Source of the DNA: Escherichia coli
Lineage (GTDB): Bacteria; Pseudomonadota; Gammaproteobacteria; Enterobacterales; Enterobacteriaceae
Assembly: GCF_051903065.1 (NCBI RefSeq)
Contig: NZ_CP178438.1
DNA length: 64,000 nucleotides
Strand: one strand, 5' to 3'
Part shown: positions 8,272 through 44,087 of the stretch, one piece after another
Layout of the letters: each line of letters begins with the position of its first letter
How positions within the stretch are numbered: the stretch's first letter is position 1
The notes under the pieces: model-generated
The model's database searches: none
What the model was told of the DNA's origin: nothing
Seen by the model: only the letters and a program-made list of their open reading frames with translations
Translations under genes and position numbers: made by a program

Positions 8272-8560
8272 AACTACCTCGTGTCAGGGGATCCATTTTC
8301 AGCCTTGGCACAAGGGAAGAGCGGAAGACGGGTGGGCGCAGAGCGATACTTCGCTACTATTTTCACCCAGAAGTGCTCCACCACTTGCGAAACGCCCGAC
8401 TGCGAACGCTTCTGGTGACAACCCAGGGGATTCAGCCCCTGTAGCCGATGATGAACGTGGCCAGCCGTTCAATCACCTCGGCGATGCACCCCCTCAGGTG
8501 TTATCACAGGACTGGCTCCTCCAACACCGTTACTTGGGCAACGCGCCTCTTCTGGCCTGC
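8272..8560 (-). promoter_or_regulatory. lysC leader containing lysine riboswitch (LYS element)
   Basis: About 290 nt GC-rich untranslated leader directly upstream of the lysC start; matches the known position of the lysine riboswitch; boundaries approximate. Confidence 0.65.
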
Positions 8561-10445: not shown

Positions 10446-10570
<125 letters not shown>

Positions 10571-10615
10571 TCGTATTCGGCAATTAATGCATAGCACGAT
10601 TAATTAAATAACCTT

Positions 10616-10650
10616 AAAAACAATGCCGACTATAAGTCGGCATTGTTTTA
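10616..10650 (+). terminator. Rho-independent terminator downstream of pgi
   Basis: Hairpin caatgccgac...gtcggcattg followed by TTTTA. Confidence 0.6.
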
Positions 10651-10957
10651 TCAGATAAATCTCCTTGTCTGTGATTTAACGGAAATCATACCGTGAGGTT
10701 AATCCTAAAATAGATTTTTAATCGTGATTTATTTCGGAAAATACTCAGATTAATTACTTTTGCTTTTATTTTAACACTATGATTTTTAATGTTATTTATA
10801 TATAAGTTGTAGCTTATATTTGATATTCATTCCAATTATCCTAAAACCCCATCTCTAATTCCCCGCGCCGTAATTCGCATGCTTTAGTTGTGTATACTCG
10901 ATCCCGCCCGAAATGTTTTTGGGTAAATCTCCATTCATTCAATGAAGGGAAATTGTT

Positions 10958-20139: not shown

Positions 20140-20280
20140 CATTCCAGGACGGATAAGGCTTTCACGCCTTATCCGACAACAACTGCCTGATGCGACGCTG
20201 ACGCGTCTTATCAGACCTACATACGTTTCGGTTTTGTAGGCCGGACAAGGCGTTCACGCCGCATCCGGCATTTCACAGCA
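20140..20280. repeat. REP/BIME repeats in malE-malF intergenic region
   Basis: ggataaggc...gccttatccg and gccggacaaggcgttcacgccgcatccggca palindromic units. Confidence 0.7.
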
Positions 20281-24369: not shown

Positions 24370-24500
<131 letters not shown>

Positions 24501-41081: not shown

Positions 41082-41906
41082 TCAGGCGGTGAAAGTACCA
41101 ATAAAGGTTTCTACTTTGCTGTCCTTGAATTTCTCAACAAGCAGATCACGAAATTCGTTAGCCATTTCTTCCTGCACCGCCTCCAGCTGAATAATGCGCA
41201 GAACCAGTACAGGACGATCGCCAGTGATAATGCTGAGGCGTAATTTAAACGGACGTTCTTTCAGACCTTCAAACGGAACGCATTTAAATTCAAATGCCAC
41301 TGGCATAATGTCTTTGGTCTTCGCTTCGACAGACTCCATCAGGGAGCGTTTGCCGCTGAAGTCATTGTCTTCAAAATCAGCGGTCTGGTTCGCTTCAATT
41401 GTGATTTTACGGATCGCCGCAGCCGCTTTGGTTGCCTGAATGGCGTCACCATTAGCATCAAAGCCCACAAGGTAGTCTGCCCAGTCTTCAATCCATTCTG
41501 CCAGTGACTTCTGGGAGTTACGCTCGCCATTAACAGACAACAGAGCAGAGAACGGTGCTGTCTTTTTCAGTTTGAGAGTGGCGGTGTTATCTGCGTGACC
41601 TGGTTCATCAATAGTACCCAGGTTAAGCACACTGACGGCTCGCATATTATCGGCATCGATAAAGCAGCGGGTGCCTTCATCTGCAAGATCTTTAGAATAA
41701 CGGGTAAAGTCATCGATGCTGGCAGTGGAAAGTGCACCACGGAAACGGAAACGATTTAAATTAAATTTTTCCAGATCATGAATGCGGAAATTCTCAGGCA
41801 ATGCCACAGCATCGGCACCAATCTTACTGATAATTTCATTAACACCCTGAGCAGAAATAAGGGCATGGATTTGATTAATTGCGGTTGAGTCTAAGTTCTG
41901 AGACAT
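41082..41906 (-). CDS. DUF2303 (YfdQ-like) prophage protein
   Basis: 274-aa ORF resembling YfdQ-family prophage proteins by eye. Confidence 0.5.
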
Positions 41907-41971
41907 AATAAGTCCTCACTATATTAAGATATTCAGTGATGAGATAAATAATCAGTTAATTAAGAACGATA

Positions 41972-42323
41972 TTAATGACCTGCTGCGCGGAGTTTTCCGT
42001 CAGGTTCACCGGCAAGAGTCAGTAATTGTCCCTGGTCTTCCTGCAGAATAGTCAGGCGACCACCGCGATTGACATACATCGGCGTTTCGGTGGTGTCTTC
42101 TTCGGAAATTTTCCCGCGGTTAGTCGGGCGAACATATGAGAGTTTGTGTTTGATTTTCACACGGTTCTCATCAAATGGTTCGATTTCCAGGTTGAGTGAG
42201 ACCTTACCTTTGGTTTTCGTGTTCATCACACCGGAAGCGACTTCACTGAGAACTGCGCCGATTTTGGTTTCAAATACGCCGCCGTCCAGCTCCCCGATAA
42301 ATTCCTGCACGTTGGTACTGCGT
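41972..42323 (-). CDS. Hypothetical phage early protein (117 aa)
   Basis: ORF 41972..42565 in track; start placed at MASERSTNVQEF with GAGGAG RBS; upstream part of the long ORF looks non-coding (palindromes). Confidence 0.5.
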
Positions 42324-42942
42324 TCGCTAGCCATTTTGCTGCTCCTCATCATATCGACCCTGCAAGGTCGGTTGGTTTCTCCACAAAACAGAGAAGAACA
42401 CCTGCGGTGGTAGCCGCCCGGATGGATTGGGTTATGAGCCCGTCGTCCGGTGATGCTCTTCTCTGTTTTGTAAAAAGAGCGGTACCAGCCGGAAGCAAGT
42501 GTACAAACTGGTACCGCCAAAGCAGTGGCTGTTGTGGTGGGGTTGTCACTCAGGCGTATGGTCAACCTGACAATCCGGTGTCCTCAACGGGGAAAGAGTA
42601 ACCCCGCCATACTTACCGCCGCGCCATTTCGCGGATTACCACAACGCTGAGAGCACTTAGCCAGTTACGGCACCACACTTTGTCGAGGTTCCATAAATGC
42701 CCTCATCGTTGCACCCTGGTCTCTTCCCAGGCGTCAAACCGAATCGCCACGCTGGTTAGGCGTCTTATCAGCATCCTCATTGACTTGCACATTCCGGCTA
42801 CCTGGTTTGTTTGCCCGAGCAAGGAGTGGATTGTCCCCTTTAACGTCCCCAGACCGCTAACGACGCATGTGCCATACGCCGTGTTACAACCAAATTTTGT
42901 CAGGACCTTGTTTGTTGGTCTGGAAAGAAAGATAAAATGAAA

Positions 42943-42980
42943 TTGCGTAACGTGCAAGTATTTTATTGCGAGATATGCAA
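42943..42980. promoter_or_regulatory. Candidate leftward operator pair (TTGCG-N5-GCAA)
   Basis: ttgcgtaacgtgcaa (42943-42957) and ttgcgagatatgcaa (42966-42980). Confidence 0.45.
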
Positions 42981-42989
42981 TAGTGTGAG

Positions 42990-43016
42990 TAATGAAAAGC
43001 CACCTTCTGGTGGCTA
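42990..43016 (-). terminator. Hairpin terminator downstream of repressor gene
   Basis: gccaccttctggtggc hairpin; on minus strand followed by TTTTCATT. Confidence 0.5.
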
Positions 43017-43036
43017 ATTGATGTTGAGGTAGGGGG

Positions 43037-43729
43037 TTAATTGTGTCGCTTAAGGGTTTGTGACTGACTGATTAAGACCTTTCCAAAGACCATAAACCGG
43101 TGTTCGTTTTCGCTGGTAATTCCCCATTCGCGGTAAATCTGATTATCAGAAATTACCAGCAGTTTATCAGGTATCATTTGCAGTCGTTTGACGTAAATTT
43201 TATCATCAAAACCAAATACATATATACCATCCCCATCAAACTGATTGATACTGATATCAACGAAGATGAGATCTCCTGGCTCAATGGTTGGACACATACT
43301 GTCCCCACGAACGTTGATAACTTTAATGTGATTTGCTGGTCGTCCACCAAACATCGATACAGCATTATCAGTTCTGTATTCAATGGCATGAATCACATCA
43401 ATGACATCACCGCCCTGGATAAGGCCATTTCCCGCACTGGCACTGACATCCAGCATTTCAATACGGAATACATCCTTCACCTGCGCAACATCCTCACTAA
43501 TACTGTTTTTACATACAGTATTACTTTTGAGGTCTGAGGTAAAGAGATCAGCAATATCAACACCTAAGCTCCTGGCAATATTACTCAGGGCTTGTTCAGT
43601 GAATTGTTTCTGCTTACCTGTTTCGAGGCGCGAGATATTCGCCGCATCCACTCCTATTGCTTCAGCGAGATCGGCGATTTTCATGTTCTTCGCCTGGCGA
43701 AGTTGTCTGACTCGATTTCCTATGTTCAT
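43037..43729 (-). CDS. CI-like phage repressor (HTH-XRE plus S24 peptidase domain)
   Basis: 230-aa ORF MNIGNRVRQLRQAKNMKIADLAEAIGVDAANISRLETGK...; C-terminal RGDSMCPTI and KRL (Ser/Lys dyad). Confidence 0.85.
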   Translation of the reverse strand: MNIGNRVRQLRQAKNMKIADLAEAIGVDAANISRLETGKQKQFTEQALSNIARSLGVDIADLFTSDLKSNTVCKNSISEDVAQVKDVFRIEMLDVSASAGNGLIQGGDVIDVIHAIEYRTDNAVSMFGGRPANHIKVINVRGDSMCPTIEPGDLIFVDISINQFDGDGIYVFGFDDKIYVKRLQMIPDKLLVISDNQIYREWGITSENEHRFMVFGKVLISQSQTLKRHN

Positions 43730-43826
43730 GCGTTTATTACATTTCTTTATTGCGCGTTAAGCAAATCAACTTGCGCAAAATATTTGCGTGAAATAATATG
43801 CTCATCACGCAATATGTGGAGGTTAT
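43730..43826. promoter_or_regulatory. Repressor/Cro divergent promoter-operator region
   Basis: ttgcgcgttaagcaa (43750-43764), palindrome TTGCGCAA (43771-43778), and TTGCGTGA-N13-TCACGCAA (43785-43813). Confidence 0.6.
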
Positions 43827-44087
43827 ATGCAATCACCATTACGGAATGTGCGTAAGGCGCACGGATTTACTTTGCAGCATGTTGCTGCGGGCGTTCAGGT
43901 CAATCCAGCGACGCTGAGTCGTATTGAAAGACTGGAACAAATTCCATCTATCGATCTTGCAGAACGTCTGGCCAATTTTTTTAAGGGTGAAATCAGCGAA
44001 ATGCAGATTCTTTATCCGGCACGTTTTCAATCTAGCCAAAACCAGAATGGGTTTAAACCACAGGAACAGGAGGTAAGCCGTGGGTAA
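43827..44087 (+). CDS. Cro-like HTH regulator
   Basis: 86-aa ORF with GGAGG RBS; HTH FTLQHVAAGVQVNPATLSRIERLEQIPSIDLAERLANFF. Confidence 0.75.
   Translation: MQSPLRNVRKAHGFTLQHVAAGVQVNPATLSRIERLEQIPSIDLAERLANFFKGEISEMQILYPARFQSSQNQNGFKPQEQEVSRG

Follow-up and report, generated by a model that had tools for sequence, protein, structure and literature searches.

A chain of four conserved RNA modules in the leftward early leader of an Escherichia coli lambdoid prophage

In the 64,000 nucleotides of Escherichia coli DNA analysed here (NCBI RefSeq assembly GCF_051903065.1, contig NZ_CP178438.1; hereafter the window), a lambdoid prophage carries a transcribed leader of about 620 nt between PL, the leftward promoter beside its immunity repressor gene, and yfdP, the first gene of its leftward operon. 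We conclude that the RNA of this leader, which runs from about 42953 to 42335 on the minus strand, is a chain of four conserved modules rather than a hidden gene. In order of transcription, and all on the minus strand, these are i) Y, a structured RNA of about 255 nt (42641-42895); ii) X, a multi-branched cassette (42531-42645); iii) T, a DicF-like intrinsic terminator hairpin (42471-42518); and iv) H, a long hairpin (42383-42471). On balance we lean towards reading the whole as a non-coding multi-module RNA precursor, transcribed from the repressor-controlled PL and processed to stable RNAs, in which T would limit entry into the genes from yfdP to xis. An earlier reading of the letters without database searches (the sequence-only reading) had proposed an RNA-based regulatory element at this place, for example a put-like antitermination RNA, a small RNA, or a structured leader. 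The non-coding character, the small RNA, and the structured leader hold up; the likeness to put found no support, there being no similarity to the PL/putL region of HK022 and only a single copy. That reading had also put its emphasis on an inverted repeat, which is H: a real element, but the last and smallest of the four modules; Y and X+T were overlooked.

The largest and most conserved module is Y, which comprises a core (42886-42693), a variable insert, and a 14-bp helix, P8, that closes the insert (42711-42698 with 42655-42642). Y starts about 58 nt past the predicted PL start, its 5′ boundary being set by homology with phage P1, where Y begins right after the CCA of the isoleucine transfer RNA (tRNA) gene trnI. 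The structure that we name has 46 pairs in 7 helices, with 97% of cells paired in an alignment of 15 sequences; 18 pairs are changed on both sides, compared with 6.8±1.7 in shuffled alignments (0 of 500 shuffles as many) and 3 or fewer in slid controls. P8 accounts for 7 compensatory pairs and is stable in all variants, and 19 consecutive invariant bases (GGUAGCCGGAAUGUGCAAG) stand among variable hairpins. Y is apparently pseudoknotted twice: the invariant loop GGCACAU of a 5-bp hairpin is complementary to an invariant AUGUGC 80 nt downstream, and the loop CACC of a second hairpin pairs with a downstream GGUG, where a C-G pair becomes A-U in three sequences. As a whole, the minus strand of 42320-42940 folds better than expected from shuffling (z = -3.86), with none of 20 shuffled sequences doing as well. 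Folding and covariance across relatives, recommended by the sequence-only reading as a check, gave compensatory pairs in H (9, see below) as well as in Y.

Y is widespread and unlabelled. A covariance model built from 22 sequences finds a single match in the window (42693-42886, 158 bits), one in the whole mEp460 genome, and one in Stx2a_WGPS2, with no second copy in the rightward operon or elsewhere in the 64 kb; it has no match in Qin, SfII, or HK022. Of 5426 complete E. coli genomes, 1375 carry Y, with 256 of the places being on plasmids, and the annotated feature under it is 'none' among the matches listed. An exact-pattern scan of one genome per species returned 23 loci (Citrobacter, Klebsiella, Kosakonia, Phytobacter, Pseudescherichia, Pseudocitrobacter, Superficieibacter, Escherichia, and Erwinia dacicola), and Y is also present in P1/P7, phiV10, SPN1S, and mEp390; in P1 and the mEp390-type loci the 3′ part of Y differs, and neither X nor T is found there. 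Rfam 15 holds no family for Y, in the window (E<=5) or in nine related loci (E<=1), and the search for a known family in the leader that the sequence-only reading had recommended came back empty, both at gathering thresholds over the whole window and at E<=5 over 41900-43900. A literature lookup by Y sequence strings likewise returned no paper, the sequences of further put-like RNAs (King 2011) lying outside the comparison, which is the main caveat on novelty; the Pas-sRNA preprint deals with other loci. Y and H appear to be undescribed so far, as does the notion of Y as a transcribed, covarying, tRNA-linked RNA common to lambdoid, P1-like, and epsilon15-like phages. With so large and strongly covarying an RNA lying unannotated in P1 and in one out of every four complete E. 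coli genomes, a well-studied system evidently still hides RNA that has gone unrecognised.

Two further observations concern the 3′ part of Y. The 3′ strand of P8 (window 42642-42655) reads UGCUCUC, or UGCUCUUU in some genera (variants in L132, L137, and L140), and resembles a boxA (UGCUCUUUA), but is base-paired. In Candidatus Erwinia dacicola (L144) a partial second copy of the 3′ part of Y, consisting of a P7-like hairpin and P8, stands in tandem downstream of the first, and beyond it come a further GUUGUGGUGAA cassette and a GGGUUCGACUCCC that resembles a T-arm.

Nor does the leader look like protein-coding sequence. No frame is open throughout the 22 homologues of its promoter-proximal part (Y); mismatches among them are spread evenly over the three codon positions, with no codon periodicity; and insertions and deletions in the variable hairpins come in every length. 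The sequence-only reading had named third-position variation, together with proteomic detection of the long ORF product, as what would overturn it, and no such pattern of variation is seen. Minus-strand open reading frames (ORFs) of 84, 66, and 197 residues do exist, and the annotation of mEp460 has two ORFs in this stretch, both on the other strand. The 84-residue ORF inside Y (42706-42957) matched no PHROG family, however. The long ORF 41972-42565, which starts at a TTG, enters the leader as the sequence-only reading had noted when it dismissed the N-terminal 80 residues as non-coding, and that judgement was sound: the true yfdP start is the ATG at 42334, in agreement with mEp460 gp35, with the RefSeq 'protein YfdP' calls, and with a PHROG profile match over residues 1-119 (PHROG 204, a family of unknown function, E 3e-49). 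From this ATG, preceded by the Shine-Dalgarno sequence GAGGAG (42347-42342), yfdP runs to a stop at 41972 on the minus strand and encodes 120 residues. We accordingly give almost no credence to the idea that the leader encodes one or more small proteins, such as the 84-residue ORF or an N-terminal extension of yfdP.

The leader is also a mosaic. Matches to P1, to P7, and to phiV10, TL-2011b, and SPN1S, which are epsilon15-like phages, span query positions 66-322; those to Qin-like prophages span 316-438; and those to SfV, SfII, and ST64B span 441-625. The window and mEp460 leaders are about 99% identical except for one cassette, the interior of X, which has been swapped between identical flanks. 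What this cassette replaces can be read from the epsilon15-like phages. In phiV10, SPN1S, O157 typing phage 9, and a Klebsiella phage, P8 ends ...CAGCGUU and a tRNA-Arg(UCU) begins at the next base (GUGGCAU...), after which come a hairpin and a DicF-like terminator; the alignment of the window with phiV10 continues to ...CAGCGUUGUGG, and the phiV10 tRNA-Arg starts at that GUGG. Judged by this alignment, X fills the exact tRNA-Arg slot of the epsilon15-like phages. P1 presents a different juxtaposition of the same kinds of element: Y lies directly after the CCA of tRNA-Ile (trnI) and extends to the ban translation start, and the ban operon opens with a relative of X and a terminator, labelled 'dicF-like region' by the P1 annotators.

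X in the window (type A) is closed by a helix between GUUGUGGU (42645-42638) and ACCACAAC (42538-42531). A scan for the closing-helix pattern picked up 121 viral loci, whose interiors fall into four types (121, 141, 130, and 127 nt), and additional types are present in other genera. The six types that we folded are predicted to share the same build, in which the closing helix is followed 3 nt later by a first 5-bp hairpin and a last hairpin abuts the 3′ strand; the interiors are unrelated in sequence yet, in these predicted folds, keep the closing helix and the positions of the first and last hairpins. For every X type the prediction shows an acceptor-type closing helix on which a D-like first and a T-like last hairpin would stack. 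The X variant of Klebsiella ATCC 13883 is predicted to have canonical D- and T-arms (GCUC...GAGC and GCUGG-UUCGACU-CCAGC). X may thus be cloverleaf- or tRNA-shaped, as these folds predict, and the behaviour of such a cassette in a tRNA slot appears to be undescribed.

Sharp exchange points of this kind, separate modules that match separate phages, an X interior replaced between 99%-identical flanks in mEp460, and an X that stands in a tRNA slot and in one Klebsiella variant retains D- and T-arms would all be expected if the conserved blocks were decayed remnants of tRNA genes together with recombination 'linker' sequences, with no functional RNA at all. Recombination linkers have no need of compensatory changes, however, and such changes preserve pairing at 18 positions in Y and at 9 in H; six unrelated X interiors retain one closing helix and the same hairpin positions; and the RNAs of two homologous loci have been detected experimentally. 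We regard this explanation as highly improbable.

Several observations bear on the sequences that surround Y, X, and T in other phages. A hairpin, AAUCACGCCUUAGGACCGUGAU, is conserved between the tRNA-Arg or X and the DicF-like terminator (phiV10 locus L006, 2319-2345; also SPN1S, Klebsiella, Citrobacter, and Superficieibacter) and is missing from the window. In phiV10, two intrinsic terminators in succession, T and then one rich in GC, precede gene p03 (L006 2362-2520), and a simple scan found no sigma70-like promoter for it, a hint that terminator readthrough is needed there. Between Y and ban in P1 (L004 2735-2790) there is a 14-codon ORF, MPIISDIQHAWVEC, with its own Shine-Dalgarno sequence, which ends UAAUG overlapping the ban start and may be a coupled leader peptide; just upstream of it, GAUUUUCUGGUGAUGAC resembles the 5′ end of DicF. 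The rightward operon of mEp460 (L002 5697-5898) has the C4 antisense RNA, isrK, and c4-a1b1 beside an antirepressor-type gene, none of which the window prophage carries.

T is formed by GGCGGUACCAG (42518-42508) pairing with CUGGUACCGC (42488-42479), followed by CUCUUUUU; a repeat search reports it as a perfect 10-bp hairpin (I4, 42479-88/42508-17), absent from the sequence-only reading. T has a GGCGG...CCGCC stem base and a U-run (GGCGGUACCAG...CUGGUACCGCUCUUUUU), its upper stem covaries in variants from other genera, and the phiV10 counterpart is called a terminator by a terminator scan. Two smaller motifs were considered and set aside: CCUUG, as a seed shared by the loop of Y helix P3 and the loop of T, falls within the stem of T in phiV10 and lacks conservation in Y; and CGCUCUUUUUA in the T tail, as a boxA, reads CGCCCUUUUUA in other genera.

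Together X and T make up a predicted small RNA of 174 nt (42473-42646, minus strand), the counterpart of two RNAs known from experiment, the 190-nt form of DicF and sRNA-17. The first comparison rests on the Qin prophage of K-12. DicF too lies in a leftward operon adjoining an immunity repressor. A 107-nt block upstream of dicF is about 93% (91-94%) identical to window 42539-42645 and ends about 28 nt before dicF; T stands at the place of DicF and has its UUUGGCGGUAyCAGUUU block and terminator tail. DicF is reported to occur in two forms, one of 190 nt with a 5′ end generated by RNase III and one of 53 nt produced by RNase E, with no internal promoter (bioRxiv 10.1101/2023.04.14.536235), and in Qin 189 nt separate GUUGUGG and the DicF terminator, so that the reported 190-nt RNase III-dependent species corresponds to X plus DicF. 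The loci also differ: the DicF 5′ segment UUUCUGGUGACG is absent from the window (a 19-nt alignment gap), the hairpin loop used for target pairing differs, the DicF model (RF00039) scores 76.7 bits on Qin dicF and has no hit in 41900-43900 at E<=5, and Qin has ydfABC instead of Y upstream and neither H nor yfdP downstream.

The second comparison is with sRNA-17. This RNA of 193 nt, mapped by rapid amplification of cDNA ends (RACE) and Northern blot in a mEp460-like prophage of E. coli K1 RS218 (Front Microbiol 2020, PMC7719688), comes from the same locus, as we established from the published primers and supplementary alignment. Of the 'full length' primers, AAAAGAGCGGTACC... corresponds exactly to 42473-42504 and CGTTGTGGT to 42646-42638. 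The 5′ motif CGUUGUGGU falls at window 42646, the 3′ end ...GGUACCGCUCUUUU (...GCUCUUUU) at 42473, and the last 67 nt, including T, are identical. The X interior is of type B in RS218, as in mEp460 (a 141-nt cassette), and of type A in the window (121 nt), hence 193 versus 174 nt, and by the criteria of PMC7719688 the window would be classed as 'degenerative sRNA-17'. The two accounts differ over Y, which is a promoter in PMC7719688 but a transcribed, structured RNA in the present analysis. Because that 'promoter' is Y, and because the sRNA-17 amplicon used there for quantitative PCR begins at the 5′ end of Y, sRNA-17 is more likely to be cut from the PL transcript than to be separately started; it is probably a processing product. 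The 'sRNA-17 promoter' fragment used in ArcA gel shifts (PMC7719688 Table S2; window 42647-42890) is likewise the Y element, and the reported ArcA regulation of sRNA-17 may therefore need re-examination.

H is the inverted repeat of the sequence-only reading, which had placed a 15-bp repeat here. A repeat search returns arms of 25 nt (I1, 42383-42407/42447-42471), 84% complementary and 39 nt apart, the first 15 nt of which match perfectly; we calculate that chance would place a perfect complement of a 15-mer no more than 100 nt away about 7e-5 times in an 800-nt region. The nested palindrome is there too (GCTCTT at 42455, AAGAGC at 42475). Extended to 42378-42476, H is a nearly perfect, Y-shaped stem-loop with a 23-bp basal stem and two apical hairpins. 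Nine sequences from five genera (Escherichia, Citrobacter, Pseudescherichia, Kosakonia, and Phytobacter) give it a consensus of 37 pairs, and at 9 of these pairs the changes are compensatory. The first pairs of the basal stem use the U-run of T. A helix as long as 23 bp is a typical RNase III substrate. H lies 48 nt before the yfdP start, and in the interval come a small conserved hairpin, GACCUUGCAGGGUC (42353-42372, minus strand; found by hairpin scan), whose variant in relatives, CCGCCCCUGCGGGG, preserves pairing, and then the ribosome-binding site.

We would put these elements together as follows, in a scheme whose cleavages, strength of termination at T, and action in trans are all putative. 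PL, under repressor control, would transcribe leftward a non-coding precursor of Y, X, T, and H in that order, and Y, whose fold is backed by covariation, would fold during transcription. A cut by RNase III, either at the foot of P8 or at that of the helix closing X, could then create the 5′ end of X+T (CGUUGUGG, about 42646); we place it there because the RACE end of sRNA-17 falls at the same motif and because the 190-nt DicF species is RNase III-dependent. Most transcripts would stop at T, near 42473, where the sequence is identical to the sRNA-17 3′ end, and so yield a small RNA of about 174 nt of the DicF/sRNA-17/STnc100 kind, presumably trans-acting. Transcripts that read through would carry H, and RNase III cleavage of its 23-bp stem may separate the RNA part from the messenger RNA for yfdP to xis. 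The leader would in this way deliver stable RNAs early after derepression and pose a transcriptional barrier that limits the leftward genes. Deletion of sRNA-17 raised yfdP about 95-fold (log2 6.58; PMC7719688), which fits a barrier role. Our best guess for Y itself is a stable, protein- or RNA polymerase-binding RNA freed from the 5′ end of the precursor.

A number of points weigh against this account. The loop of T is 19 nt long, and the terminator scan made no call for T in the window; the RNA ends and the RNase assignments have all been transferred from relatives. The rise of yfdP in the sRNA-17 deletion could stem from the resistance cassette's own promoter, given the primer design in PMC7719688. 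For type-A X, the predicted fold shows no clear gain in stability over shuffled sequence (z = -1.06), ARAGORN found no tRNA or transfer-messenger RNA in 42000-43200, and RF00005 has no hit on X in the window or on five other X types, whereas true phage tRNAs score 65-75 bits. Finally, since GGCACAU and AUGUGC are both invariant, covariation neither supports nor rejects the first pseudoknot of Y.

Y might instead be a cis-acting processive antiterminator RNA, put-like in action though unrelated to put, that binds the polymerase transcribing it, carries it past T and later terminators, and replaces N. Y lies close behind PL and always upstream of a terminator, T, that precedes protein genes. No N-like gene is evident in the leader, as the sequence-only reading had remarked, nor does one appear in the full annotations of mEp460 and Stx2a_WGPS2, two viable relatives for which a Q-like antiterminator is listed and in which the entire leftward operon through the excisionase gene xis sits behind this leader. 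In phiV10 the next gene stands behind the two terminators described above with no recognisable promoter of its own, and 19 consecutive invariant bases together with invariant helices are what one would expect of an RNA that docks on a conserved host machine. Against these stand i) a blastn comparison of the leader with the PL/putL region of HK022 (22-30 kb), which gave chance hits only (E>=0.6); ii) the size of Y, about 255 nt with pseudoknots, against about 70 nt and two stem-loops for put (PMC9378689); iii) the single Y in the window and in the mEp460 genome, with none in the rightward operon; iv) the position of Y in P1, 2.3 kb downstream of the ban promoter and just before ban; and v) the sRNA-17 3′ end found by RACE at T, which a terminator-resistant polymerase could not have given. 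We consider antitermination by Y unlikely.

It is also conceivable that Y is a sensor, that is, a riboswitch or a leader responsive to a tRNA or protein, which decides between processing, termination at T, and readthrough. A compact, pseudoknotted domain with many invariant junction and loop bases behind a promoter has the usual anatomy of an aptamer, and CGUUGU can pair either with ACAACG in Y (P8) or with the ACAAC after X (the closing helix), the two pairings being mutually exclusive. Between Y and T, however, stand the 115 nt of the X domain, which leaves no room for the usual competition between terminator and antiterminator; P8 is a stable 14-bp helix in all variants; the P1 and mEp390-type loci have a different Y 3′ part and lack X and T; and the neighbouring genes vary with context and suggest no ligand. 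A sensor thus seems to us quite improbable.

A bolder proposal about Y we put forward only tentatively, as something well short of an even prospect: that Y represents a new functional class of RNA in temperate enterobacterial phages, a double-pseudoknot domain of about 255 nt that would act on the transcription or RNA-processing machinery, for example as an RNA-only processive antiterminator unrelated to put, or as a cis-acting catalyst or guide for maturation of the abutting tRNA or tRNA-like domain. If so, the unit Y-(tRNA or X)-T would amount to a mobile operon of non-coding RNAs, ancestral to small RNAs of the DicF, sRNA-17, and STnc100 type.

The surroundings of the leader are those of a lambdoid immunity region, with cro-like, CII-like, and O-like genes to the right and homologues of yfdP, yfdQ, and yfdR to the left. 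The CI-like repressor of S24/LexA type is encoded at 43037-43729 on the minus strand (from the ORF list; PHROG transcriptional repressor/CI-like repressor, E 2e-62). Downstream of it a terminator scan finds a hairpin, AGCCACCAGAAGGUGGCU followed by UUUUC (42998-43015, minus strand), at the position annotated as a terminator in phage SfII. A promoter scan places the sigma70-like PL within 42944-42989 on the minus strand, with a -35 of CTCACA (42989-42984) and a -10 of TAAAAT (42965-42960), and finds no further sigma70-like site on that strand from 42960 to 42336. Two operator-like 15-mers, read from the sequence, overlap PL (TTGCGAGATATGCAA, 42967-42981; TTGCGTAACGTGCAA, 42944-42958), and both resemble a 15-mer beside cro, TTGCGCGTTAAGCAA (43749-43763). 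The sequence-only reading had taken all of 42324-43036 for a gene-poor leader of about 700 bp; the region is indeed gene-poor, but because 42957-43036 holds the repressor terminator hairpin, promoter, and operators, the leader proper is the shorter one of about 620 nt. Elsewhere in the window, outside the prophage, Rfam matches at gathering level are a lysine riboswitch (8363-8559, minus strand), three naRNA4 (REP-type) elements (10475-10546, 20147-20217, and 24376-24446, plus strand), and STnc430 (10612-10761, minus strand).

Among known systems, HK022 has putL and putR and lacks N: putL and Y are both non-coding RNAs that stand at the beginning of a PL transcript in a lambdoid phage without N, but there is no sequence similarity, and put occurs in both early operons, Y only once. 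The PL leader of lambda, with nutL and an RNase III site before N, is long and structured and has a long hairpin just upstream of the first gene. The present leader shares these traits; unlike lambda it is followed by yfdP with no N gene, and a conserved boxA/boxB pair was not identified in it. It is the obvious place to ask how lambdoid phages without N, such as mEp460, the SfV-like phages, and several Shiga-toxin phages, express their leftward early operon, excision included.

RNAs punctuated by tRNA-like elements offer another parallel. The C4 RNA of P1, which is processed by RNase P, the MALAT1-mascRNA pair, and the plant-virus RNAs in which a pseudoknot domain precedes a tRNA-like structure all have a tRNA-shaped domain between functional segments, or a pseudoknot-rich domain directly 5′ of it, as Y and the predicted X would have. 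They differ from the present case in that no tRNA detector accepts X and that only RNase III, not RNase P, has experimental support at a homologous site.

The small-RNA part of the leader, X+T, is of a kind already known from the long form of DicF, sRNA-17, and STnc100. STnc100 (RF02076) and the related PasD prophage small RNAs have a UGGUGA/CACCA closing helix, a first hairpin 3 nt later, and a last hairpin that abuts the 3′ strand, followed by a spacer and a terminator, a build common to the predicted folds of the six X types. The type-A X of the window has no STnc100 hit at E<=5, however, and only type-C relatives reach 33-36 bits, against a gathering score of 47. These sub-threshold hits fall on type-C X in Qin (L001 2217-2426, minus strand), L042 (5714-5916, minus strand), L077 (3625-3744, minus strand), and P1 (L004 1571-1690); one of them lies between dicF and dicB in K-12, and Qin appears to carry two X-type units in tandem. 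The X+T units look like one broad family of prophage small RNAs, within which DicF, sRNA-17, and, probably, STnc100 are of common phage origin. A published search for a DicF counterpart in phage genomes came up empty (PMC5069750). The architecture of the DicF locus is nevertheless present in viable phages (mEp460, cdtI, Ayreon, Stx2c and Stx2a phages, P1, and the phiV10-like phages), so that the X-plus-terminator build of DicF, one of the oldest known bacterial small RNAs, can now be placed in viable phages and linked to tRNA-Arg.

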